Positions 4,332-57,416 of a stretch of DNA of 64,000 nt are shown one piece after another. Position 1 is the stretch's first letter; every line of letters starts with the position of its first letter. Made by a program: the position numbers and the translations under genes. The stretch lies in the NCBI GenBank assembly GCA_015062485.1, contig SUUO01000003.1, positions 28,026 to 92,025 on the forward strand. The letters run 5' to 3'. The notes under the pieces were generated by a model, which was not told the DNA's origin, ran no database searches, and saw nothing but the letters and a program-made list of their open reading frames with translations. Origin of the DNA: Alphaproteobacteria bacterium (GTDB taxonomy: Bacteria > Pseudomonadota > Alphaproteobacteria > Rs-D84).

Positions 4332-4628
4332 TTTCCTTTCTCCTGTTGTTATCAATCCAACGCACCCGCGTCAGATAATCAAAAACCACCATTCATCAGG
4401 TGGTCAGGAGGTTGGAAACAATCATCGGAATTGTGTCGCTTATTCAATATATTCGCAACCCTCCTGACGACAAATATCAGGAGTTTAAATTTACCGTCCG
4501 CAAGACAGATATCCATTGCGAACGCCGATGCACGGGTTTCCACACCCCATTATGACAAAAACCGCCATAACAAGTATATTATAGCGAATTCTTTCAACTT
4601 AGGCAAATACTAAGATAAATAAAAATTA
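4332..4628 (-). promoter_or_regulatory. leader module copy 1 (promoter + conserved structured 5' leader, shortened variant)
   Basis: Read on - strand: -35 TTGCCT (4601-4606), 17-nt spacer, -10 TATAAT (4578-4583). A/T motif at 4613-4628. Key 7-mers 4413-4419 (tGGAAac) and 4536-4542 (gtTTCCa). Lacks the internal T1 hairpin. Confidence 0.75.
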
Positions 4629-4677: not shown

Positions 4678-5592
4678 TTATTCGTCGCCTGCGCGCGGAT
4701 GGGCGTGCGCATATATATTTGAAATATCACTCATATTAACGCGTGTATAAACTTGGGTTGCCGCCAATGATGAATGCCCCAGTAATTCCTGTAAACTTCG
4801 TAAATCCGCACCACCGGCCAATAAAGCCGTCGCAAACGTATGGCGCAATGCGTGCGGTGTCACATAGTCCGGCAACTGTAAATAATTTCGCAGGTTTTCC
4901 ACAACCTTTTCCGCCATACGCGCCGACATCGGCAGGCCCCGCACACTGCGAAACGCAACCTCGTCCGGGACCTTTTCGAACGGGTGGGTCGCCATATATT
5001 TATCCATCGCATCCCAAACCGCCGGCAATACCGGGACCAGGCGTTCCTTGTTCCCTTTACCCACGATACGCAAAACATCGGGGCGGCCCATAACATCCCG
5101 ATTTCGCAGGTTCAAGGCCTCTGATATTCGCAGGCCACACCCAAACAATAACACCACCAACGCCCAATCACGCGCCGCAACCCACGGATTTTTTACATTT
5201 GTCGCACGAATCGCCCCGTGCATATCGGCAACATCCGACACGTTTATCGCCTTGGACAATTTGCGTGGCACCTTTGGCGAAGATACAAGGCCAATTGCAT
5301 CGTTTTTTATATCGTATTTTCGCCCCAAGAACTTGTAAAACCCACGCAACGAAGACAATGCCCGCGCCGTCGATTTATACGCCAGTCCGCGCCGCTGACG
5401 ATCCGCCAAATATGCGCGGAAACAAATCGTATCTGCGCGCGACAAATCCGCGACATCCGCATCCGCACCATTAAATTTGTTAAAAAATTTCAGGAAATCT
5501 AAAACATCCATTTCATACGCATCAATCGTATTCAACGAATACCCCTTGGTATCAGACAAATATTTTAAAAATTCCTGAATAACGTCTTGCAT
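4678..5592 (-). CDS. tyrosine recombinase XerC/XerD family
   Basis: N-terminal SAM-like domain (YLSDTKGYSLNTIDAYEMDV). Catalytic region GLRISEAL, HALRHTFAT, LLGHSSLAATQVYTRV. Confidence 0.9.
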   Translation of the reverse strand: MQDVIQEFLKYLSDTKGYSLNTIDAYEMDVLDFLKFFNKFNGADADVADLSRADTICFRAYLADRQRRGLAYKSTARALSSLRGFYKFLGRKYDIKNDAIGLVSSPKVPRKLSKAINVSDVADMHGAIRATNVKNPWVAARDWALVVLLFGCGLRISEALNLRNRDVMGRPDVLRIVGKGNKERLVPVLPAVWDAMDKYMATHPFEKVPDEVAFRSVRGLPMSARMAEKVVENLRNYLQLPDYVTPHALRHTFATALLAGGADLRSLQELLGHSSLAATQVYTRVNMSDISNIYAHAHPRAGDE

Positions 5593-7604: not shown

Positions 7605-9999
7605 ACTTTTTCACAACAAAATTTACCAATTTCTTTGGGACAACAATTGTCTTGATAATCGTTGCGCCATCTAACTTGGCACCCAATGCACTTTTTGCCA
7701 TTTCAACCAATGCATCTTCGGCCACGTCCGCCGGCGCAACAAATTCCGCACCACGTTTACCGTTAACGGACGCAACAATTGTCATCTCGGTCTCAACCAG
7801 TTTCGCCGCATCAAACGTTGGCCAATCTGACAACGCCAGCATTTCATCGTGTCCCAATTTTTCCCACATTTCTTCGGTCAAATGTGGTGCAAATGGATTT
7901 AACACGCGAACCAGCGTTTCGTACGCCGCCCGCGGCATACCACCCGAAAAGGCATTGATATATTCCATCATCGCAGAAATCGCCGTATTAAATTTCATAT
8001 TTTCAACGCGCTCTGTCACATCTGCGATTAACTTGTGCATCAGGCGTTCCTGGGCCCCGGTCATTGGTACATCTGTCAAATTATCAGACATATTTTCCAC
8101 ACGTTTCAAGAAACGCTGAACCCCGGCCAGTGCACCATCGGTCCATACCGCGTTATTTTCCCACGGCCCCAGTGACAACACCGAAACACGCCCCGCATCG
8201 GCCCCAACAGAATCAACCAAATCCGCCACCATAAAACCATTCCCACGCGACTTGGACATTTTATAGCCATCATTTCCCATCAACAACCCCTGGGCGGTAC
8301 GCTTTGCATATGGCTCTGGCGTATTAACCAATCCCAAATCATACAATGCGTGATGCCAAAAGCGCGAATAAATCAAATGACGTGTGTTATGCTCGTGCCC
8401 ACCGTTATAGTGTGTAACCGGCATCCAATTTTCCATCTGCTGACGCGAACAAAATTCTTTATCATTCTTTGGATCCAGATACCGCAAATAATACCACGAC
8501 GAACCCGCCCATCCCGGCATAGTATCCGTTTCACGTTTTGCAGGCGCCCCACAGTGCGGACACGTTGTATTTACCCAATCGGTTGCACGCGCCAATGGCC
8601 CTTCGCCATCATCGGTTGGTTTATAGTCCACCATATATGGTTGCATAATCGGCAATTCAGATTCATCAACCGGTACCCAGCCACATTTTTCACAATAAAC
8701 CATTGGGATTGGTTCACCCCAATACATCTGGCGCGAAAAACCCCAGTCTTTTAATTTATATTTTGTTGTGCCACGTGCAAAGCCGTGTTCCGTACCGTAT
8801 TTAATCGCCGCGGCAATGGCTTCTTCTTTGCCCATACCGTCCAAGAAAGATGAATTTATATGCGCACCGTCGCCTTCCCAAACCTTGTCTGGTTCACCAC
8901 CGGCTAAAACCGGGATAATTTCCAGACCGAATTTTTTCGCAAAGTCCCAGTCACGACTATCGTGCGCCGGCACCGCCATAATTGTCCCATACGCATAATC
9001 AACCAATACATAGTCCGATGTGAACACCGGGATTTCTTTGCCGGTATATGGATTCAATGCCATTATACCCTCTAAACGCACACCCGTCTTTTCCTTGGTC
9101 GCGTCTGTCCGTTCAATCTCAGATTTTGCGGCAGATTCTTTGATATACGCACGTACCGCATCCGCGTTTTTAATTTTACCTTCGTCCAGCCATTTTGCCA
9201 ACAACTTGTGTTCCGGGGCAATTACACAGAACGTCACACCAAATATAGTATCTACACGCGTTGTATAAACCGTCATAACATCATCCCCAACACGGAAATC
9301 TACATCCGCGCCGTGCGATTTACCAATCAGGTTTACCTCATCTTTTTTAATACGTTCATCAAAATCAACATCTTTTAAGCCGTCTAATAATTTATCGGCA
9401 TACTTAGACAACGCCAAATTCCACTGAACCTTCATTTTCTTTTCGACCGGTCCGTGACAGCGTTCACAACAACCATCTTCTAACTCTTCATTGGTCAGGT
9501 TTGTTTTGCACGCCGGACACCAATTCATCGGCAGGGCAGATTTATACGCCAACCCCGCCTTGTAAAACTGAATAAACATCCATTGTGTCCATTTAACATA
9601 TTCCGGATCAGACGTTGCAACACGTGTTTCCGGACTGACCGACCAACCAACACGATCAATCATTTTTGAATATGCTTCTATCAATTCCTTTGCAACGTCT
9701 GCCGGATGGCGTCCAATCTTGGTGGCATAGTGTTCACCGGCAATCCCCATTGCATCAAAACCCATTGGGAACAAAACATCATATCCACGTGCACGACGAA
9801 ACCGGGCCAAGACATCGATTCCCGAATAATTCATCATATGTCCCGCGTGCATCCCGGCACCGGACAAGAACGGAAATTCCACTAACGTATAAAAACGAGG
9901 CTTCGAACCATCATCTTTCGGTACAAACGCGCGTGCATCGCGCCAGCGTTTTTGCCATTTTGCCTCACGTTCGTGAATTTTTTTGATATCATCTGCCAT
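7603..9999 (-). CDS. leuS: leucine--tRNA ligase
   Basis: GMHAGHMMNY (HIGH-type) and KMSKSRGN motifs, plus CP1 editing region. 798 aa. Confidence 0.95.
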   Translation of the reverse strand: MADDIKKIHEREAKWQKRWRDARAFVPKDDGSKPRFYTLVEFPFLSGAGMHAGHMMNYSGIDVLARFRRARGYDVLFPMGFDAMGIAGEHYATKIGRHPADVAKELIEAYSKMIDRVGWSVSPETRVATSDPEYVKWTQWMFIQFYKAGLAYKSALPMNWCPACKTNLTNEELEDGCCERCHGPVEKKMKVQWNLALSKYADKLLDGLKDVDFDERIKKDEVNLIGKSHGADVDFRVGDDVMTVYTTRVDTIFGVTFCVIAPEHKLLAKWLDEGKIKNADAVRAYIKESAAKSEIERTDATKEKTGVRLEGIMALNPYTGKEIPVFTSDYVLVDYAYGTIMAVPAHDSRDWDFAKKFGLEIIPVLAGGEPDKVWEGDGAHINSSFLDGMGKEEAIAAAIKYGTEHGFARGTTKYKLKDWGFSRQMYWGEPIPMVYCEKCGWVPVDESELPIMQPYMVDYKPTDDGEGPLARATDWVNTTCPHCGAPAKRETDTMPGWAGSSWYYLRYLDPKNDKEFCSRQQMENWMPVTHYNGGHEHNTRHLIYSRFWHHALYDLGLVNTPEPYAKRTAQGLLMGNDGYKMSKSRGNGFMVADLVDSVGADAGRVSVLSLGPWENNAVWTDGALAGVQRFLKRVENMSDNLTDVPMTGAQERLMHKLIADVTERVENMKFNTAISAMMEYINAFSGGMPRAAYETLVRVLNPFAPHLTEEMWEKLGHDEMLALSDWPTFDAAKLVETEMTIVASVNGKRGAEFVAPADVAEDALVEMAKSALGAKLDGATIIKTIVVPKKLVNFVVKK

Positions 10000-11975: not shown

Positions 11976-12297
11976 GTGTTATTATTTATTTTTATTATTG
12001 TATTTTTTCTCTATACATTTTATAATCACGGTGTCAGCGGGATTTTCCACTGATGGGGTGTCAGAACCCGTGCATAACGCGTTTGGAATCGAAATCCAGC
12101 GCGCCATTGGCGTGTTTTTTCGTGTATTTTCCAAACGATAAACAAAAAAACTCCTGAACACACATAGGTGTCAGGAGGGTTGCGAATATATTGAATAAGC
12201 ACACAATTCGTTATGATTGTTCTGAACCTCCTGACCACTCGTTTATGCGCGGTGGTTTTTGTTTTTTCGCGAAGAACAAAGAAAGGGAGTGATACAT
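11976..12297 (+). promoter_or_regulatory. leader module copy 2 (only + strand copy)
   Basis: -35 TTGTAT 11998-12003, 17-nt spacer, -10 TATAAT 12021-12026. Key 7-mers 12061-12067 (tCAGAac) and 12219-12225 (gtTCTGa). T1 hairpin GCGCC att GGCGTG + T6. Confidence 0.8.
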
Positions 12298-18045: not shown

Positions 18046-18379
18046 TGTCTTATCTCCTTTCTGCTTTAAAAAAAAACAAAACCACACGTAAAACGGGTGG
18101 TCAGGAGGTTCGAAACAATTATAAGGAATTGTGTGCTTATTTTGTGCGGACACACCGCCCATTATTCACAACCCTCCTGACCTTTTATAGCCAGGAGACA
18201 TTTCATCCAGGACCACAAACGAAAAAACACGCCATATGGCGCGCCCGGTTCGGATATTTCGTTTTGTTCCAGACGCCTTATATCGGGTTTCGACACCCCA
18301 TCACGACCATCGATCGTAACAAGCAAATTATAACCAAATATTTCATCCAACGCAAATACTTAGATAAATAAAAGTTTAT
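18046..18379 (-). promoter_or_regulatory. leader module copy 3
   Basis: Read on - strand: -35 TTGCGT (18350-18355), 17-nt spacer, -10 TATAAT (18327-18332). A/T motif 18362-18379. Key 7-mers 18110-18116 (tCGAAac) and 18287-18293 (gtTTCGa). Confidence 0.8.
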
Positions 18380-18556
18380 CGCAGGAAGTACAAACAGAAT
18401 TTTTTGCAAAAAAAATTCTGTCATCCCGTGGCTTGACCACGGGACCCAGGTCATATTTCCTTTTTATTTGCTTTCACCTGGATTCCGGGGTCAAGCCCCG
18501 GAATGACAAAAACGTAAAACGTTTTTGTTAAATAAACTTTTATTTTTATAAGTATT
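18362..18556. repeat. MITE-like palindromic element (copy M1) bounded by inverted AGATAAATAAAAGTTTA motifs
   Basis: Four consecutive hairpins: CAGAATTTTTTGCAAAAAAAATTCTG, CCCGTGG cttga CCACGGG, ATTCCGGGG tcaag CCCCGGAAT, ACAAAAACG taaaa CGTTTTTGT. Near-identical to 25658..25865 in reverse orientation. Confidence 0.8.
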
Positions 18557-25358: not shown

Positions 25359-25674
25359 TTTCAATCTCCTTTCTTTTGTTTTATTCGCGAAAAAACAAAA
25401 ACCACACGTTTTTCACGAGTGGTCAGGAGGTTGGAAACAATCAATACGAATTGTGCTGCTTATTCAATATATTCACAGCCCCCCTGACACTAAATGCTCA
25501 GGAGATATTTGTCATTTGGTTTTCACACGAAAAAACACGCCATCGGCGCGTCGGATTTCGTTTCCAAACGCGTATTGCACGGGTTTCCACACCCCATTAT
25601 GACCATCGATCATAACAAACAAATTATAACCAAATATTTCATCCAACGCAACGACGAAGATAAATAAAAGTTTA
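25359..25674 (-). promoter_or_regulatory. leader module copy 4
   Basis: Read on - strand: -35 TTGCGT (25646-25651), 17-nt spacer, -10 TATAAT (25623-25628). A/T motif 25658-25674. Key 7-mers 25432-25438 (tGGAAac) and 25583-25589 (gtTTCCa). Confidence 0.8.
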
Positions 25675-25865
25675 GTGGGGTAATCAGTTTACAAAAACGT
25701 TTAACGTTTTTGTCATTCCGGGGCTTGACCCCGGAATCTAGGTGAAAGCAAATAAAAAAAGAAATATGACCTGGGTCCCGTGGTCAAGCCACGGGATGAC
25801 AGAATTTTTTTGCAAAAAATTCTGTTCGTACTTCCTGCGATAAACTTTTATTTATATAAGTAATT
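25658..25865. repeat. MITE-like palindromic element (copy M2), inverted relative to M1
   Basis: Same four hairpins as 18362..18556 in reverse order. Bounded by AGATAAATAAAAGTTTA (25658-25674) and its inverted copy ATAAACTTTTATTTATATAAGTAATT (25840-25865). Confidence 0.8.
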
Positions 25866-34164: not shown

Positions 34165-34241
34165 TGGCACGCCCTACAGGATTCGAACCTGTGACCTGCA
34201 GATTAGAAATCTGATGCTCTATCCAGCTGAGCTAAGGGCGC
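34165..34241 (-). tRNA. tRNA-Arg (anticodon TCT)
   Basis: rc reads GCGCCCTTAGCTCAGCTGGATAGAGC...CAGA-TTTCTAA-TCTG...GGTTCGAATCCTGTAGGGCGTGCCA. Cloverleaf with encoded CCA. Confidence 0.95.
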
Positions 34242-42016: not shown

Positions 42017-42093
42017 TGGTCGGGGCGAAAGGATTCGAACCTTCGACATCTTGGTCCCAAACCAAGCACTCTACCAGACTGAGCTACACCCCG
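42017..42093 (-). tRNA. tRNA-Pro (anticodon TGG)
   Basis: rc reads CGGGGTGTAGCTCAGTCTGGTAGAGTGCTTGG-TTTGGGA-CCAAG...GGTTCGAATCCTTTCGCCCCGACCA. Confidence 0.95.
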
Positions 42094-45631: not shown

Positions 45632-45934
45632 ATTTCAATCTCCTGTTTGTTAAAAACAAAACCACGCGTTTTTCACGAGTGGTCAGGAGGTTGGAAACAA
45701 TCAAGAAGTATTGTGCTGCTTATTCAATATATTCACAGCCCCCCTGACACTAAATGCTCAGGAGATATTTGTCATTTGGTTTTCACACGAAAAAACACGC
45801 CATTGGCGCGTCGGATTTCGTTTCCAAACGCTTCTTGCACGGGTTTCCACACCCCATTATGGCAAACCACCATAACAAGTATATTATAACTGAATGTTTT
45901 TCTTTGTTCAATACTTAGATAAATAAAAGTTTAT
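45632..45934 (-). promoter_or_regulatory. leader module copy 5
   Basis: Read on - strand: -35 TTGAAC (45906-45911), 17-nt spacer, -10 TATAAT (45883-45888). A/T motif 45917-45934. Key 7-mers 45692-45698 (tGGAAac) and 45843-45849 (gtTTCCa). Differs from copy 4 at only about ten positions over ~190 nt by eye. Confidence 0.8.
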
Positions 45935-45935
45935 G

Positions 45936-46030
45936 TTAGTGGTTAGTGTAAGTGATTAGTGATGGCACTATGATGTGCGGCATTTGCCACACACAAACAC
46001 TATCCACTAGCCACTCACACTAATCACTAA
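45936..46030. repeat. inverted pair of TTAGTG-type short-period repeats next to the rho terminator
   Basis: TTAGTGGTTAGTGTAAGTGATTAGTGATGG (45936-45965) versus CCACTAGCCACTCACACTAATCACTAA (46004-46030). The same tail occurs at 7548-7577, 25875-25908 and 49242-49270. Confidence 0.7.
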
Positions 46031-48912: not shown

Positions 48913-49226
48913 TTTTGTCTTTCTCCTGTTTGTTATAAAAAACAAAACCACCGCGCATAAACGAAGTGGTCAGGAGGTTCAGAACAATCAAGAAGAATTG
49001 TGTGCTTATTCAATATATTCGCAACCCTCCTGACACCTATGTGTTCAGGAGTTTTTATTTATCGTTTGGAAAGTACACGAAAAAACACGCCACCGGCGTG
49101 CCGGATTTCGATTCCAAACGCTTCTTGCACGGGTTCTGACACCCCATTATGGCAAAACCACCATAACATACTAATTATAACCGATTGTTTCCATTTGCGC
49201 AAATACTTATAGAAATAAAAGTTTAT
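48913..49226 (-). promoter_or_regulatory. leader module copy 6
   Basis: Read on - strand: -35 TTGCGC (49197-49202), 17-nt spacer, -10 TATAAT (49174-49179). A/T motif 49209-49226. Key 7-mers 48979-48985 (tCAGAac) and 49133-49139 (gtTCTGa). T1 hairpin CACGCC ggt GGCGTG + U6 at 49080-49100. Confidence 0.8.
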
Positions 49227-49268
49227 CCTAGTGCTTCTACTCTACACTAACCACTTACACTAATCACT

Positions 49269-49298
49269 AAAAAACCCGCCGGATGGCGGGATTTTTTT
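49269..49298 (-). terminator. intrinsic terminator after autotransporter gene
   Basis: CCCGCC ggat GGCGGG with flanking A5/T7 runs. Confidence 0.85.
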
Positions 49299-52200
49299 AG
49301 AACCTATACGATCCAGAAACCTTGATATTATGCAACTGCATATCATTATTGTACTGATATCTGTAATCAATACCAAATTGCAGGCCATTTGCAGACAAGA
49401 ATTCAAATCCACCACCAATATTTGCCCACAATGGATCGATTTCTATGTCATATTCGCTGAACACGTTGGCCGATGCAAATTTATATTTCGCAAAATCTGG
49501 CGCACCCAACACATCATATTCAACACCAATTGTCGCATATGGTCTAATCTGGAACCAAGCCGACGGATAAATACGTTTCTGGGCGGTCAAAGAATACCCC
49601 GGCGTCAACATCAAATATCCATCGGATTCAAAATCCATATAATTTTCACCGGCGGCCTTTTCCGTCACATCAAAGCCAAAGTTATAACCCGCGCGCGCAT
49701 ACAAGTTACCAACGACATACTGATTTAACCAATCGTGCATCAGGCCCCATTCCGTCGTCAATGCAAACGCAGTACCCGTTCCATCAATCGTATCCATAAA
49801 TGTCATATGGCGCGTTGTATCAATAAAGTGCATATCCATAAACGCATTACCATACAGGCGGAACTTATGCCCCAACGTCTTCATCAAATATGCCCCCAGG
49901 CCAACATTCGTATCCGCCACATCCACAGATACATTGCCGACAATATTCTGGCCCGGTAAATAGCCCAAATCCATATCATCCGCGTTATCTGATGACATAT
50001 GCGACACACGTCCCGTCAGCCCCAGAATCAATGTATCAGATGACTGCCAATCAAAACCACCCGACAATTCAAAGCGATTACCATACACACGCTTGTCATC
50101 GGTGACATTCTGGCTAAACATACCGAAATCAAAATCCGCCCAGGCTTTCTTTAAATTCCGGTTACGATTCCAGATAAATTCATCAAACATTCTGTCTTCG
50201 AAATTACGGAACGATGTATGTTCATTCAACGCGATTGCGCCCGCAATTTGTTCAATTTCACGTGGCTGAACCAGGCGACTGAACGGCACAAACGCAGCAC
50301 CATTTGCCGTTTCAACGTAATGTTCCATACGGTTGTAAAGTTCCGTCATCAGCGTTTCAACATTTGTACCCTCAAAAATCGCCGGTATAACTTCTATTGG
50401 TGATTTATTAAAGAATCCCATATTCAACAACTGCCCCGCGATAAGGTTATCCAGTGCACCGGCGGCGACATATTCGCCCGCGGTGTATTCTGGCTGGCGT
50501 GCGACAATTGGCTGAATCCGATTATCTTCAATCAAAACCGGCCCACCAAAGCGCGGATCAAACACGACGTAAAGGCTGTCTGCGGCACCACTGTTATCTG
50601 TATCACGCGTTGTGATATAAGCCCCCAAATTGTCCGGATTTAGCGCAACGCACGTCGTATTACCCGCATTACAGAACAACACATTCAAATTACGGATTTT
50701 TTCAATATCACTAAATTCAGATAACCCCTGCTCTGCCTTTAATAACCATATCGCCGTTTCCGCGGATACATTGGACACATCCGTAAAACGCAATCCAATT
50801 TGGCCATCGGCCAAAACATCCGAATTCAGCGCCAACGCACTATATTCCGTCCCAGACATAAACTTGCCATTAACCTGAATCAACGCCGCACCATCGGTCG
50901 CATTTGTAATTTGCCCCAATGTCGCATCATTATTCAAACTGACCGACGACCAATAATTGCGCGTGGTCGAATTAAGGCCCGGCGTTACATTATATGGTAA
51001 TATCGCCGCCAATAACTGACTGTTTGCATCAAATATATAATCACCATCAACCGCCATTTGTTCCAGATTCCAAATCTTGGTTCCGCCAGAGATATTTCCA
51101 TTAACCTCTAAATCCAACCAATTTGTATCCGGATTTGCGGCAATTGTTAAATCCGTCGCATTTATATCGCCATTAACCGTAACATCACTGCTTAAAATCT
51201 GCATAGCGCCAGATGTCTGATTGATTCCCGCGACCGTAACATTCGATGCCGTAATCGTATAATCATCGGCGGTGATTCCGATATCATTATCACGCAAAGT
51301 TCCCGTATAATTCTGATATAAATTGCCGTCCGTTGTTAATTCAGAATCCAATGTCCAGCCCGCGCCATATAACTGAATTGTGCCGCCATCCACAACCAAT
51401 CCAGCCATATCAACAATGTCATCCCCCGAATCCAGGGACACAGAGCCACTATTGCTAAGTGTCGCCATTGTGATGCCGTGCGCGGCATCCAATACCAATG
51501 CACCACTGTTTATAATATTATCAAATGATACTGCATCCGAACTGTCTAACTTGAACGCGGCATAATTGCGGAAAGTATACAAATTATCCACGTCCCCACT
51601 AATGTTATTAAATGTTTCACCAATGAAATTAACCGTCGCCAGTGATACAGATGTGCCAACCGTCATATCGCCATCAATTGTAATATCCCCAGAAATATCA
51701 TACGTTCCAACATTCGAATCGGCAACGAATCCACCGGCGGTCAATCCCGTGGAACTAAATACAACCTCGTCCGACAGTATGTTTAACATCCCCGTCTTGC
51801 CCGTTCCCTGGTTCAAGACGCCCGCAACATTAACCGCGCCACCAAATGTTGCCCCATTCAAAGCATTTAAATTAAATGTACCACCGGTAATATCCATACC
51901 ATATTGCACATCCAACAGATTCGCATCTATATCCGTCAATGCACCCGCAGATTCAATCGCCGTCGCATAAACATCGCCAACCGCATCGATATCTAATTCA
52001 TACGCGGTCGCACCATTTTTCAAAATACCAATATTGATATCATCCCCAGAATTTAAAATAACATACCCATTATTTGTGACATCGGCCAAATCAATCCCGG
52101 CGGCCTTAATATCAAGCCACCCCGCAACAGTCATATCATCAACGATATCAACGTCACCGACCGCGTCTATATCCAAATATCCATTTGGCGCAACCGCCCC

Positions 52201-54627
52201 AGTAATTTGAATATTACGTCCAGAATTCAAATTCAAACGATTACTTTGCCCCAAATTAATCCCACCAAAGATATCTATATCCTTGTCCGTCGCCTGGGAC
52301 ACCAATGAAAACTCAGACGTTCCACCAACAATCAGTCCCCGATTCGCATCATCGGTATCATCAAATGTGATACCACTTTGAATCGATACCCCACCCGTGG
52401 CAACATCCACATTAACCGCATTAACCGTATTAGAATCATTACCATAGACATAAATTGTCCCATTATCCTCGGTCAGGGAATCCACCGACACATCCGTACT
52501 GTGAATTTCAACAGTACCACCTTCCGACGCCAACAAATCCCCACCAATTGTCAAATCGGCCGTTCCCGCCGCATCATTGACAAGGGACAATGGCGTTGGA
52601 AGCGGCCGCCCCTGAAAAACAATGCGATTGGCCGCGCCAGTCGCCGTAACATCACCACCAATATTGAATGATGTTGCCATAAAATTCAACGTACGCGCCG
52701 TTGTCCCCGCGGTGGTTGCCAAAACATCACCACCAACATTTACCGCACCATTTACATCAAATTGGAAGCCCATCGGTCCATATGCCGTTACATAAATATC
52801 CCCATCACCGGTGGTCGCACCTGTGGCGTTTGCCACAACATCACCGCCCACATTCATCACATATCCGTTATTATCGGCCGGTCCACCAACTGTCAAACTG
52901 TGCGTACCAGAACCAATATTTAAAACACCACCGGTAACATTTAATGTACCCGTACCAAATGTATTTTCATCAACCATACTCTGTGCGATATCAATTCCCA
53001 ACAAGCCATTCAGATACGCCGTACCCCCGGCAACATTCACACCGCCCAGTTTAATAGAACTGCCCTGAAAATCAGAACCATCGATTGTTAAATCACTATA
53101 ATTATTTGTAACATTGCCAACAATATTTATCTGACGGCCCGATATGTCTATATCACTGATGATATTCTGATTATTTCCATCAGTAATATCGCCATTAACC
53201 GTCACCAGGCCCGTTGTACCACTGGTGGCCAAGACATCCAATGTTCCACCATTTCCAACAATACCACCGACAGCAACCTGTTGCCCCTGTAATGTCATTG
53301 TACCGCTTGCCACAACATTACCCTCAACATTAACCGCACCCGATGCAATTAAATTTGTCGTTGCACTCGCCGCATCGACCACACCACTTGCGACCAAATT
53401 AGTTGTGGCCCCCAATGCCTCCAACCGCATTGTACCGGCATTATTTTTTACATTTCCAACCGTCAACCCATTCGCCGCCAAATACATATTCGCATTTGCG
53501 TTTAATGTACCATTGCTAACATCACCCGTTGAAAACGCCGAACTATCAACAACTACATCAAAGTTATTTAGATTATTCGCAAAGAATGCCGATGTATTCC
53601 CGCCCAGAACCAAGCTTCCCGTCGTTAACGAGAACGCATTGCCCCAGTCATCTTCGCTATCCACCACCAGATTAAATCCATTTGCCAGGTTCGTTTCACC
53701 CGCCACATCAATTGTTAAAATCCCCCCATTTACAAACGACGCATTATTCGCATCCCCACCATTAACCGTCAATGAATTGGCATTAACGACCATCTGACCG
53801 GCATCATTTTTCATTGTGCCATCAACAACAATATCCGCATCCGATGCATTAATCCTCATCAAGTTACCAGAATTTTCAACATTCCCCGTCGCGTTCAAGT
53901 TGCCGGCAACACCAATATCAAGTGTACCCGCCCCAGTATGAGATATATCTCCAACCTTAATATTTGTTGCGGCAATATCGATTTCTGCGCCCCCGCCCCA
54001 GATATTATTCAACTGTGCAATATTCAATGTATTCGTCGCATTCAGCACAACGGCACTGCCCGTATCTACCGTAACCGCCCCAACATTAATATTATTTGCC
54101 TGTACAGACAACGCACCCGACGTATCAATTGCCCCCGCCAGGAATTCACCATCCGTATTTGTTGTTCCCACAACAAAATTATTAACATCCGTTACGTTAA
54201 ATGTACCCGTATTGTTAATTGTAGACACCGATACATCAAATGTCGCATCATCTGTATAGTTTGAAATATTAAACGTACGCCCACCCGCAATCGTCAATGT
54301 GCCACCAATATCAACATCACCATCAGCCTGTAACGAAAACGTATCAGATACCGCATCACTGATAAACAATGTTCCGCCGGCCTGCTGTGGGATTGGCGTC
54401 ACAAACACACGCATATCACCCGCCACATCCAAAGCCACACCATCGGTCAAGCCGGCCCCATATATCTGCAACGCATTACCAGACTGTACCGCCTTAATCT
54501 CGTCCTCTGATACCGTCACCGTTGTGGCATTAACATTTGGCACATCCGTTACCGGTATATTTTCCGTCGCAGCAAATGCGCCAAACGGCACAAAACCGCA
54601 TATAAAAGCAAGTAATTTCTTTAACAT
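49297..54627 (-). CDS. giant autotransporter (1776 aa): repetitive beta-helical passenger + C-terminal beta-barrel
   Basis: Signal peptide MLKKLLAFICGFVPFGAFA. Long Gly/Asn/Thr/Val-rich degenerate repeats. C-terminal barrel ending ...KVSGSYRF. Confidence 0.9.
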   Translation of the reverse strand: MLKKLLAFICGFVPFGAFAATENIPVTDVPNVNATTVTVSEDEIKAVQSGNALQIYGAGLTDGVALDVAGDMRVFVTPIPQQAGGTLFISDAVSDTFSLQADGDVDIGGTLTIAGGRTFNISNYTDDATFDVSVSTINNTGTFNVTDVNNFVVGTTNTDGEFLAGAIDTSGALSVQANNINVGAVTVDTGSAVVLNATNTLNIAQLNNIWGGGAEIDIAATNIKVGDISHTGAGTLDIGVAGNLNATGNVENSGNLMRINASDADIVVDGTMKNDAGQMVVNANSLTVNGGDANNASFVNGGILTIDVAGETNLANGFNLVVDSEDDWGNAFSLTTGSLVLGGNTSAFFANNLNNFDVVVDSSAFSTGDVSNGTLNANANMYLAANGLTVGNVKNNAGTMRLEALGATTNLVASGVVDAASATTNLIASGAVNVEGNVVASGTMTLQGQQVAVGGIVGNGGTLDVLATSGTTGLVTVNGDITDGNNQNIISDIDISGRQINIVGNVTNNYSDLTIDGSDFQGSSIKLGGVNVAGGTAYLNGLLGIDIAQSMVDENTFGTGTLNVTGGVLNIGSGTHSLTVGGPADNNGYVMNVGGDVVANATGATTGDGDIYVTAYGPMGFQFDVNGAVNVGGDVLATTAGTTARTLNFMATSFNIGGDVTATGAANRIVFQGRPLPTPLSLVNDAAGTADLTIGGDLLASEGGTVEIHSTDVSVDSLTEDNGTIYVYGNDSNTVNAVNVDVATGGVSIQSGITFDDTDDANRGLIVGGTSEFSLVSQATDKDIDIFGGINLGQSNRLNLNSGRNIQITGAVAPNGYLDIDAVGDVDIVDDMTVAGWLDIKAAGIDLADVTNNGYVILNSGDDINIGILKNGATAYELDIDAVGDVYATAIESAGALTDIDANLLDVQYGMDITGGTFNLNALNGATFGGAVNVAGVLNQGTGKTGMLNILSDEVVFSSTGLTAGGFVADSNVGTYDISGDITIDGDMTVGTSVSLATVNFIGETFNNISGDVDNLYTFRNYAAFKLDSSDAVSFDNIINSGALVLDAAHGITMATLSNSGSVSLDSGDDIVDMAGLVVDGGTIQLYGAGWTLDSELTTDGNLYQNYTGTLRDNDIGITADDYTITASNVTVAGINQTSGAMQILSSDVTVNGDINATDLTIAANPDTNWLDLEVNGNISGGTKIWNLEQMAVDGDYIFDANSQLLAAILPYNVTPGLNSTTRNYWSSVSLNNDATLGQITNATDGAALIQVNGKFMSGTEYSALALNSDVLADGQIGLRFTDVSNVSAETAIWLLKAEQGLSEFSDIEKIRNLNVLFCNAGNTTCVALNPDNLGAYITTRDTDNSGAADSLYVVFDPRFGGPVLIEDNRIQPIVARQPEYTAGEYVAAGALDNLIAGQLLNMGFFNKSPIEVIPAIFEGTNVETLMTELYNRMEHYVETANGAAFVPFSRLVQPREIEQIAGAIALNEHTSFRNFEDRMFDEFIWNRNRNLKKAWADFDFGMFSQNVTDDKRVYGNRFELSGGFDWQSSDTLILGLTGRVSHMSSDNADDMDLGYLPGQNIVGNVSVDVADTNVGLGAYLMKTLGHKFRLYGNAFMDMHFIDTTRHMTFMDTIDGTGTAFALTTEWGLMHDWLNQYVVGNLYARAGYNFGFDVTEKAAGENYMDFESDGYLMLTPGYSLTAQKRIYPSAWFQIRPYATIGVEYDVLGAPDFAKYKFASANVFSEYDIEIDPLWANIGGGFEFLSANGLQFGIDYRYQYNNDMQLHNIKVSGSYRF

Positions 54628-56596: not shown

Positions 56597-57037
56597 CTAA
56601 TACGATAATAAGTTATCTAACATATACACTAAACCATATTGCGCATAATCTGCACTAGTACCGGCTAATCCTTCAAAATCCACACAACGAAAGGCACAAT
56701 TTCCGCTACAATATTGCCCATAATTCCACCCCGTAAACACCCATTTAGACACTGCCGGAGTCAGCAAACGACACCAACAATACCCAACAGGGTTATCACC
56801 GTCATCTTGTTGCAAATTTTCTGCCGTCTCTCCTGTATAATCACCCCCTTGTTTCGAACAAAAATAAGTACCGCGATACGTATCTGTACCACACTTTATG
56901 GTCCAATCAGAATCGTTATAGTCCGTTCCCCCGCTACAACTAGTTTGATTTGTAACATTTTTTACGCATTGGGTTGCGGCATTCGCAGACGCGGCCATTA
57001 TTGCACCGACCGCGGTTAATGTTAAAAGTTTTTTCAT
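56597..57037 (-). CDS. secreted Cys-rich L-family protein
   Basis: RBS AAGGAG. MKKLLTLTAVGAIMAASANA signal peptide. GYCWCRLLTPAVSKWVF ... QYCSGNCAFRC. 9 Cys. ORF 56597..57088 trimmed. Confidence 0.9.
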   Translation of the reverse strand: MKKLLTLTAVGAIMAASANAATQCVKNVTNQTSCSGGTDYNDSDWTIKCGTDTYRGTYFCSKQGGDYTGETAENLQQDDGDNPVGYCWCRLLTPAVSKWVFTGWNYGQYCSGNCAFRCVDFEGLAGTSADYAQYGLVYMLDNLLSY

Positions 57038-57356
57038 TTGTTTACTCCTTTTCTTGTTTTTCGCGAAAAAACAAAAACCACCGCGCAAAACGAAGTGGTC
57101 AGGAGGTTAGTAACAATCTCTAAGTATTGTGTGCTTATTCAATATATTCGCAACCCTCCTGACCAGTAAGATTCAGGAGTTTTTTTATTTAACGTTCGGG
57201 TTCAGATACGAAAAAACACGCCATCGGCGCGCCGGATTTCGCTTCCAAACGCTTAGAGCACGGGTTACTACACCCCATTATGGCAAACCGCCATAACACA
57301 CGTATTATAACCGATTGTTTCCATTTGCGCAATTGCAATGATAAATAAAAGTTTAT
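57038..57356 (-). promoter_or_regulatory. leader module copy 7
   Basis: Read on - strand: -35 TTGCGC (57327-57332), 17-nt spacer, -10 TATAAT (57304-57309). A/T motif 57340-57356. Key 7-mers 57108-57114 (tAGTAac) and 57264-57270 (gtTACTa). Confidence 0.8.
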
Positions 57357-57389
57357 CTAAGTGATTAATAGTATCCGACACTCACCACT

Positions 57390-57416
57390 AAAAAATCCCC
57401 CATTCGGGGGATTTTT
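57390..57416 (-). terminator. intrinsic terminator after carD
   Basis: A6-TCCCCC attc GGGGGA-T5. Confidence 0.85.

Follow-up and report, generated by a model that had tools for sequence, protein, structure and literature searches.

Long-range contacts that couple a sensing domain to an expression platform are represented by the L5-L13 kissing loop of the cobalamin riboswitch and by H-type pseudoknots. In hok mRNAs, pairing between the 5' and 3' ends (the tac/fbi fold-back inhibition) covaries among paralogous loci, governs translation and processing of the toxin mRNA and works with an antisense RNA, and multi-copy anti-Shine-Dalgarno small RNAs (sRNAs) are known in Alphaproteobacteria (the 'cuckoo' CCUCCUCCC family). 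Here, we analyzed an RNA leader found in seven copies in a 64-kb stretch of the alphaproteobacterial contig SUUO01000003.1 (positions 28,026 to 92,025; this whole stretch is called the window). An earlier note on this DNA had described, in each copy, a 7-bp helix between two distant boxes with a variable central tetranucleotide; we call this helix R:R', and a second helix next to it L:L'. We propose that the leader is a transcription-attenuation switch acting at a predicted terminator, T2, and clamped by these two covarying helices, a reading to which sequence comparison gives, in our estimate, a probability of roughly 60%.

Structured cis-regulatory leaders that combine a terminator with an antiterminator, the kind of element proposed here, are well known. 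As in attenuators and the expression platforms of riboswitches, a terminator lies just before the ribosome-binding site (RBS), one strand has two exclusive partners, and variable stems stand beside conserved cores; the leader differs from them in having no known aptamer, leader peptide or tRNA-binding element and no Rfam match, and in that the genes encode secreted cysteine-rich proteins, not a metabolic pathway. With a riboswitch in mind, the leader has a predicted four-way junction and a near-invariant 15-nt loop in hairpin P4, but the linker between P2 and hairpin H is A-rich and variable in length, and the downstream genes are diverse, with no Pfam or NCBIfam family. A leader peptide starting at the AUG before GGGG was considered and rejected, this AUG being GCG or GUG in several copies and L having a length of 6-7 nt. 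With kissing-loop and H-type systems the leader has in common a hairpin loop able to pair with a distant strand beside a regulatory sequence, with Watson-Crick pairs only at the four central pairs, whereas it differs in its two reciprocal loop-to-strand helices, which overlap the hairpin stems by 2 nt at their inner ends and may replace the hairpins. Like hok, it shows long-range pairing of its ends through sequences that differ between paralogous copies in one genome and are always compensated; there is, however, no sequence or structural similarity to hok, and the proposed output is termination. The 'cuckoo' sRNAs resemble it in their alphaproteobacterial host, in many copies per genome, in a C/U-rich anti-Shine-Dalgarno-like motif and in tandem arrays, which occur in at least one relative (L083, metagenome contig Ga0137307_100400), but the motif of the leader is CCUCCUGACC or CCUCCAACC and lies in a strand, whereas theirs is CCUCCUCCC and lies in hairpin loops, and the leader is an RNA of about 210 nt with a four-way junction that almost always precedes a gene.

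A search of the whole window against Rfam 15 at the gathering threshold returned nothing beyond two tRNAs, and the region of copy 7 gave at E<=10 only weak matches, all below half of the gathering score, those inside the leader reaching 10.5-15.3 bits. A scan of viral contigs for the core of the element gave 0 hits, and the searchable literature, including full-text searches for sequence motifs and for Rs-D84 together with riboswitch, held no description of this RNA. Neither this family nor its reciprocal loop-to-strand clamp nor its link with secreted proteins seems to have been described before, and we regard the element as a well-supported candidate for a new class of regulatory RNA.

Covariation of two long-range helices

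Alignment of the seven regions of the window revealed about 330 nt common to them, consisting of a TTG...TATAAT promoter, a leader of about 210 nt and then an RBS and a start codon. In mRNA sense, which is the minus strand in six copies and the plus strand in copy 2, the leader reads P0, GGGGU, R, ACCYC, L, P2, an A-rich linker, hairpin H, P4, ACAAU, L', AUUGU, R', A, ACCUCCUGACC and T2, with the RBS and start codon about 25 nt further on (coordinates are in Table 1). Exact matches to a 31-nt core of the element were found in at least 57 stretches of species-representative genomes, and among the matches listed every one is a metagenome-assembled genome (MAG) labelled Alphaproteobacteria, Candidatus Enterousia or uncultured Rickettsiales. 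A gapped pattern search of gut metagenomes added further copies. By nhmmer, the window contains exactly seven leader copies, and at least 152 distinct elements were obtained overall, of which 140 distinct copies could be parsed for pairing of the boxes; an alignment of 65 sequences (A2) was used for formal covariation tests. All sequences come from MAGs or metagenome assemblies, in which repeats may be assembled wrongly.

All seven 7-mer pairs of R and R' in the window are found at the positions first given and are exact reverse complements, and they indeed fall into the four compensated sequence states first described: TGGAAAC/GTTTCCA in three copies, TCAGAAC/GTTCTGA in two, and TCGAAAC/GTTTCGA and TAGTAAC/GTTACTA in one each. 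The conserved block in which one strand was said to lie does have a variable NNNN core, but it reads GGGGTG-T-NNNN-AC-CCG, not GGGGTGT-NNNN-AACCCG, and it is the 5' block. Similarly, the restriction of variation to the four central nucleotides is true of the window but not of the family as a whole, where position 6 varies too (A-U 59, G-U 4, G-C 2). In divergent relatives all seven R:R' positions have changed, with 7-bp complementarity kept for both R:R' and L:L'. Further copies lacking complementarity, named at the outset as the observation that would speak against the helix, are close to absent: four Watson-Crick central pairs are present in 138 of the 140 parsed copies, and 23 tetranucleotide states of R were observed among homologous copies from other genomes and metagenomes. 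When the R box of one copy was set against the R' box of another, 4/4 matches arose in just 9% of 5000 trials. On A2, R:R' is 100% paired and its covariation was reached by 0 of 500 shuffles, a count that is not to be read as a probability, as the A2 sequences share descent. Each of the four central pairs occurs in two to four Watson-Crick types, and double changes are seen at five of the seven R:R' pairs. The near absence of central G.U pairs (0 among 260 central R cells of A2, one among the 140 parsed copies) suggests that this short helix needs full pairing strength.

In the two exceptions among the 140, L167 and L084, R:R' and L:L' fail jointly, which points to chimeras whose 5' and 3' halves stem from different copies. 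The contig of L084 is 1.8 kb long and has 0.78x coverage. In the L167:4194 region (contig JAAGKN010000911.1, 77 kb), R and L mismatch their partners (5' GAAG/CCUAAG versus 3' CGUU/CUUGAG), and this copy is either a true recombinant, a decaying copy or, despite the long contig, an assembly chimera at the repeated core.

L:L', which the earlier note did not contain, adjoins R:R', differs between copies and is always compensated in the window, for example as CUCUAAG/CUUAGAG in copy 7, CAAUACG/CGUAUUG in copy 4 and UAUAAGG/CCUUAUA in copy 3. It is 92.6% paired in A2, with double changes at 7/7 pairs and, again, 0 of 500 shuffles at the observed value. A helix of at least 6 bp is present in 138/140 parsed copies; boxes taken from different copies gave one in about 9% of trials. 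The columns of R:R' and L:L' are the top mutual-information pairs of the whole alignment, and slid registers fall to 39-55% paired (A2, nested model). P0, the base of P2, hairpin H and T2 are likewise supported by covariation in A2. RNAalifold and single-sequence minimum free energy (MFE) folds independently gave P0, P1a (the pairing of GGGGU with the distal ACCUC), R:R', L:L', H, P4 and T2, the MFE z-scores being -5.0 for copy 6 and -3.7 for copy 7.

Paired columns contain G.U 261 times and A.C 15 times (146 versus 14 without two near-invariant G.U pairs). Because G.U far exceeds A.C, the pairing works on the gene-sense strand only and is a property of RNA, not DNA. Despite the shared descent, it is difficult to account in another way for 23 states that are almost perfectly compensated, and to judge from the alignments R:R' is a real intramolecular RNA helix kept by compensatory change. 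The covariation is already strong enough to justify laboratory follow-up.

Competing pairings around the predicted terminator T2

The suggestion that the upstream partner, R, sits in a hairpin loop and makes a loop-to-strand contact is supported by covariation of this hairpin, HP1 (GGGGU/ACCYC). In A2, its pair 28:41 is GC 47 times, GU 15 times and AU 3 times, A.C never occurring, and A28 is found only together with U41 (8/8 copies). Moreover, divergent CCUCCAACC-type relatives place unrelated HP1 stems around R (GCGAGA-UUAGAAC-UCUCGC and GCGAG-CUGAAAU-CUCGC), and the stem of the second hairpin, HP2, becomes CUAU/AUAG, GAUA/UAUC or GCA/UGC in divergent homologs and ACA/UGU in the L083 array. 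The layout is a mirror one, with R in the HP1 loop and R' directly after HP2, and with L' in the HP2 loop and L following HP1. Two drawings accommodate these elements. A double pseudoknot, with reduced HP1 and HP2 stems alongside R:R' and L:L', is 96.2% paired on A2. In a nested drawing, which is the MFE and RNAalifold solution, P1a, R:R' and L:L' make one long stem closing a four-way junction; P1a is in the RNAalifold register, with G32 bulged, and this replaced a register with G.A and U.C mismatches. HP1 and HP2 may thus either coexist with the clamp or be replaced by it.

The Shine-Dalgarno-like GGUCAGGAGG is complementary both to CUCCUGA, with which it makes hairpin H (CUCCUGA / UCAGGAG), and to the CCUCCUGACC strand behind R'. 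T2 begins with bases of CCUCCUGACC as well (ACC), and the CCUC part of CCUCCUGACC can pair with GGGGU. Neither T2 nor this three-way competition of CUCCUGA, GGUCAGGAGG and CCUCCUGACC was part of the earlier note. The putative antiterminator helix GGUCAGGAGG:CCUCCUGACC, which takes in the ACC of T2, is 95.8% paired, with a double change (CG 61, UA 4) from one clade; one clade changes all three strands together, to CUCCAACC / GGUUGGAG / CCUCCAACC. T2 is present in all 65 aligned copies, always with a U-run after it, and its stem covaries (AU 57, GC 5, GU 3 at one pair; CG 62, UA 3 at another). At the level of predicted pairing, the leader has two features of an attenuator, a terminator between promoter and start codon and an alternative helix overlapping the 5' arm of this terminator, in the pattern of a terminator / antiterminator / anti-antiterminator platform.

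In the switch that we propose, R:R' and L:L' would clamp the two leader ends around the internal hairpins P2, H and P4, and CCUCCUGACC would choose between three mutually exclusive partners: GGGGU (P1a, coaxial with R:R'), GGUCAGGAGG (the antiterminator) and, through its ACC, the start of T2. Once the clamp is formed, CCUCC would be held by GGGGU, hairpin H would stay closed, T2 would form and transcription would stop. Were the clamp prevented or opened by a trigger, which may be a ligand, a protein or temperature, CCUCCUGACC would invade hairpin H, T2 would lose its base and the gene would be transcribed. The helices and the alternative pairings are present in the alignments; termination at T2, the existence of a trigger and the assignment of the ON state are what we infer from them. 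Such a leader would show, in a natural RNA, the coupling of two reciprocal loop-to-strand helices with a three-way switch of Shine-Dalgarno and anti-Shine-Dalgarno-like strands.

Several points weigh against this reading, beginning with the shared descent of the A2 sequences. The three-way covariation is confined to one small clade and probably reflects a single evolutionary event. A simple terminator scan detected T1, a terminator-like hairpin inside P2, and not T2, the loop of which is longer than 8 nt. Forced antiterminator folds are on average 10.6 kcal/mol weaker than the MFE (97 copies); since the clamped state with H and T2 is favored by about this amount, the default would be termination, and read-through, the ON state, would need a trigger, a factor or kinetic control. 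In the main type of leader HP1 and HP2 each have 2 nt in common with R:R', which makes the pseudoknot and the nested fold indistinguishable from sequence. Finally, the L083 elements stand in tandem without genes, as if they were stand-alone RNAs.

In copies 4 and 5, GGGGG replaces GGAGG in the middle strand, creating a U.G wobble with both partners. After the U-run of T2, UUUUUGUUUUUU, come CGCG and an A-rich AAAAACAAGAAAA able to pair with the U-run, just before the Shine-Dalgarno sequence (window 57040-57075), and this motif stands at equivalent positions in many copies across species.

Other readings of the leader

We considered whether the conserved fold could be a static structure, a single stable fold that protects or positions the 5' end of the mRNA or binds a common protein, with T2 holding expression at a fixed level as a leaky pause or terminator. 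No other state comes near the stability of the clamped fold with T2, and P0 and the near-invariant P4 loop resemble stability or protein-binding features. However, GGUCAGGAGG keeps two different partners and so does GGGGU, also in divergent homologs; a static fold does not need these dual partners, and we consider it unlikely.

A stand-alone sRNA is unlikely too. The unit from promoter to T2, about 210 nt, would here act in trans, its CCUCC pairing with Shine-Dalgarno sequences, and the gene would be reached by read-through only. The unit does have its own promoter and a predicted terminator, anti-Shine-Dalgarno sRNAs in multiple copies have precedents in Alphaproteobacteria, and L083 carries behind clpX, at 8460-9390 (plus strand), an array of five or more tandem units of this RNA family, each with a TATAAT box and a T2-like terminator and with no open reading frames (ORFs) between them. 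Two of these units are without the 5' R/L domain, one is without the conserved P4 loop, and two small helix-turn-helix-like ORFs come after the array. Nearly every copy, on the other hand, has a start codon in the same orientation behind it, within about 20-45 nt (76 window and genome loci), which leaves no room for a second promoter. CCUCC is moreover paired in the most stable fold, and no Rfam sRNA family matches.

The earlier note had also offered a locus-specific key-lock between a short 5' transcript and the mRNA leader. In the form weighed here, the transcript would end at T1, carry R and L and pair with R' and L' of the leader of the same locus. With its U6 run, T1 makes a good terminator-like hairpin, and it separates R and L, on its upstream side, from R' and L', on its downstream side; in the L083 array, moreover, unit C has 5' boxes that fit the 3' boxes of the neighboring unit B, not its own. 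Our data speak against this idea, which we now hold to be very improbable: T1 (a GC hairpin with a U-run) is present in only 85 of the 140 copies, P2 being anything between a minimal hairpin and a long stem, no promoter can be recognized after T1, and the cis fold is strongly favored. In addition, a locus-specific address would not be expected to recur in the same cell, yet R is common to 18% of within-genome copy pairs versus 9% of between-genome pairs, and among the matches listed one MAG carries CAGA in 4 of 8 copies.

The variation of the tetranucleotide instead looks like ordinary compensatory change, to go by its distribution, and not like a locus code. The central four nucleotides of R lie in the HP1 loop and those of R' in a single strand; central R positions vary and the flanks do not because the center is constrained by complementarity alone and the flanks by two pairings. 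In both states of the proposed switch the tetranucleotide would be bound only to complement its partner, and it would drift by compensatory change. Tests for hypermutation or diversifying selection found none, within-genome sharing of R not being depleted. When copy pairs with at least 95% identical variable regions were compared, 24 of 25 agreed in both R and L. Only copies 4 and 5 (25390-25628 and 45652-45888) did not; they are identical through P2, H and P4, otherwise-variable linkers included, and different at two compensated L:L' pairs, one compensated P0 pair and most of the promoter region. This pattern fits patchy (mosaic) recombination among paralogous leaders followed by selection for complementarity.

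It would be surprising if the R and L boxes were a programmable RNA-RNA recognition code, with reciprocal loop-to-strand contacts nucleating pairing as antisense RNAs do. If this were true, each of dozens of near-identical leaders per cell would recognize the partner strand that belongs to it, pairing between neighboring transcripts could occur in tandem arrays such as L083, and the result would be an addressable network choosing which secreted surface proteins a reduced-genome gut symbiont makes.

A DNA-level element, be it a cruciform or inverted repeats serving in recombination, as R/L boxes of the integron attC kind or as the ends of an invertible segment, is largely refuted: the resemblance to attC is superficial (two self-complementary box pairs, an unpaired spacer, outer boxes often ending in AAC and beginning with GTT, variable inside with complementarity kept, and a tyrosine recombinase gene adjoining copy 1), whereas the pairing holds on one strand, the units sit at promoter-bearing gene 5' ends in mixed orientations, copy 2 being opposite, the boxes do not fit RYYYAAC/GTTRRRY and have a purine-rich 5' box, full-length nhmmer hits follow the model collinearly over its whole length with no inverted internal segment seen, and an integron integrase was not found, the recombinase (window 4678-5592, minus strand, immediately upstream of copy 1) being XerC-like at 279.7 bits against TIGR02224, under the equivalog cut-off of 335, and at 110.7 bits against integron integrase.

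Downstream genes and other features of the window

Each unit consists of its own promoter, the leader and a gene for a predicted secreted-type cysteine-rich protein. Behind the leaders of the 76 loci, the same-orientation gene nearly always encodes a protein with a signal-peptide-like N-terminus (signal peptides were called by eye); these proteins have 110-440 aa and usually 7-24 cysteines. Five products of the window make one family with a conserved CWC...P..SKW...C...C...C pattern, and Pfam and NCBIfam searches gave no family for the proteins of about 146 aa. The products of copies 5 and 6 gave hits to Ephrin_rec_like / TNFR-type cysteine repeats, of which only Ephrin_rec_like in copy 6 passed the Pfam cut-off; a PDB sequence search with the 308-aa protein encoded behind copy 6 gave no match. 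For the copy-7 protein, an AlphaFold model built on a 5-sequence alignment had a predicted local distance difference test (pLDDT) score of 52, too low to serve for a fold search.

The uncultured gut Alphaproteobacteria of Candidatus Enterousia and the order Rs-D84 have reduced genomes of less than 1 Mb (PMC12306168). In this 64-kb window alone, seven copies each precede a gene for a predicted secreted cysteine-rich protein, and such heavy investment of a streamlined genome in one RNA element suggests that the element co-ordinates the secreted or surface repertoire, which is probably the interface with host or partner cells. The gene upstream of copy 7 ends in its own terminator, and the flanking genes are housekeeping ones (LeuRS, release factor, transketolase, Rho, CarD and XerC).

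Table 1. Features of copy 7 and positions of the other leader copies (window coordinates)
Feature	Position	Strand	Remarks
TATAAT -10 box	57304..57309	-	promoter of the unit
P0	57277..57297	-	5'-terminal hairpin directly after the predicted transcription start; all pairs covary
GGGGU	57272..57276	-	partners: local ACCCG 57261-57265 (HP1) or distal ACCUC 57103-57107 (helix P1a)
R box UAGUAAC	57264..57270	-	copy 7; 5' strand of R:R'; loop or 3' shoulder of HP1
L box CUCUAAG	57252..57258	-	copy 7; 5' strand of L:L'
P2	57193..57251	-	hairpin of variable length; base CGUY/RACG
T1	57211-57232		terminator-like hairpin + U6 run, inside P2 of copy 7
Hairpin H	57155..57179	-	5' arm CUCCUGA 57173-57179; Shine-Dalgarno-like GGUCAGGAGG 57155-57164
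P4	57129..57154	-	near-invariant 15-nt loop GAAUAUAUUGAAUAA at 57135-57149
HP2	57113..57130	-	ACAAU ... AUUGU, L' in loop; stem covaries in divergent homologs
L' box CUUAGAG	57118..57124	-	copy 7; 3' strand of L:L'; in HP2 loop
R' box GUUACUA	57108..57114	-	copy 7; 3' strand of R:R'; one base upstream of CCUCCUGACC
CCUCCUGACC	57097..57106	-	anti-Shine-Dalgarno-like, 3' arm; partners GGGGU, GGUCAGGAGG and (ACC part) T2
T2	57066..57099	-	intrinsic-terminator-like hairpin ACCAC...GUGGU + U-run, ~25-28 nt before RBS/start codon
Copy 7 downstream gene	56597..57037	-	146 aa; signal-peptide-like N-terminus; 9 cysteines; paralogous to products behind copies 1-4
Terminator of gene upstream of copy 7	57391-57416		
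Copy 1	4381..4583	-	R 4536-4542, R' 4413-4419; without T1
Copy 2	12021..12267	+	R 12061-12067, R' 12219-12225; sole plus-strand copy
Copy 3	18068..18332	-	R 18287-18293, R' 18110-18116; 16-nt hairpin inserted in P4 loop
Copy 4	25390..25628	-	R 25583-25589, R' 25432-25438
Copy 5	45652..45888	-	R 45843-45849, R' 45692-45698
Copy 6	48937..49179	-	R 49133-49139, R' 48979-48985

For the 15-nt P4 loop no partner in trans turned up in the window, its sole matches being the elements themselves. In copy 3 (window 18137-18167) this loop is split by a GC-rich insertion able to form a small hairpin, which shows that not every copy strictly needs the loop sequence. Copies 3-7 have, upstream of the -35 region, a conserved A/T-rich block, ATAAACTTTTATTTATC (57320-57370, 49190-49240, 45900-45950, 25640-25690 and 18345-18400), which could be an UP element or a common transcription factor site. 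An ORF of 1776 aa (window 49297-54627, minus strand), with no Pfam match at E<=1e-5, stops just upstream of the promoter of copy 6. The two tRNAs, tRNA-Arg(TCT) at 34165-34241 and tRNA-Pro(TGG) at 42017-42093, both on the minus strand, are the sole Rfam and ARAGORN hits in the window.

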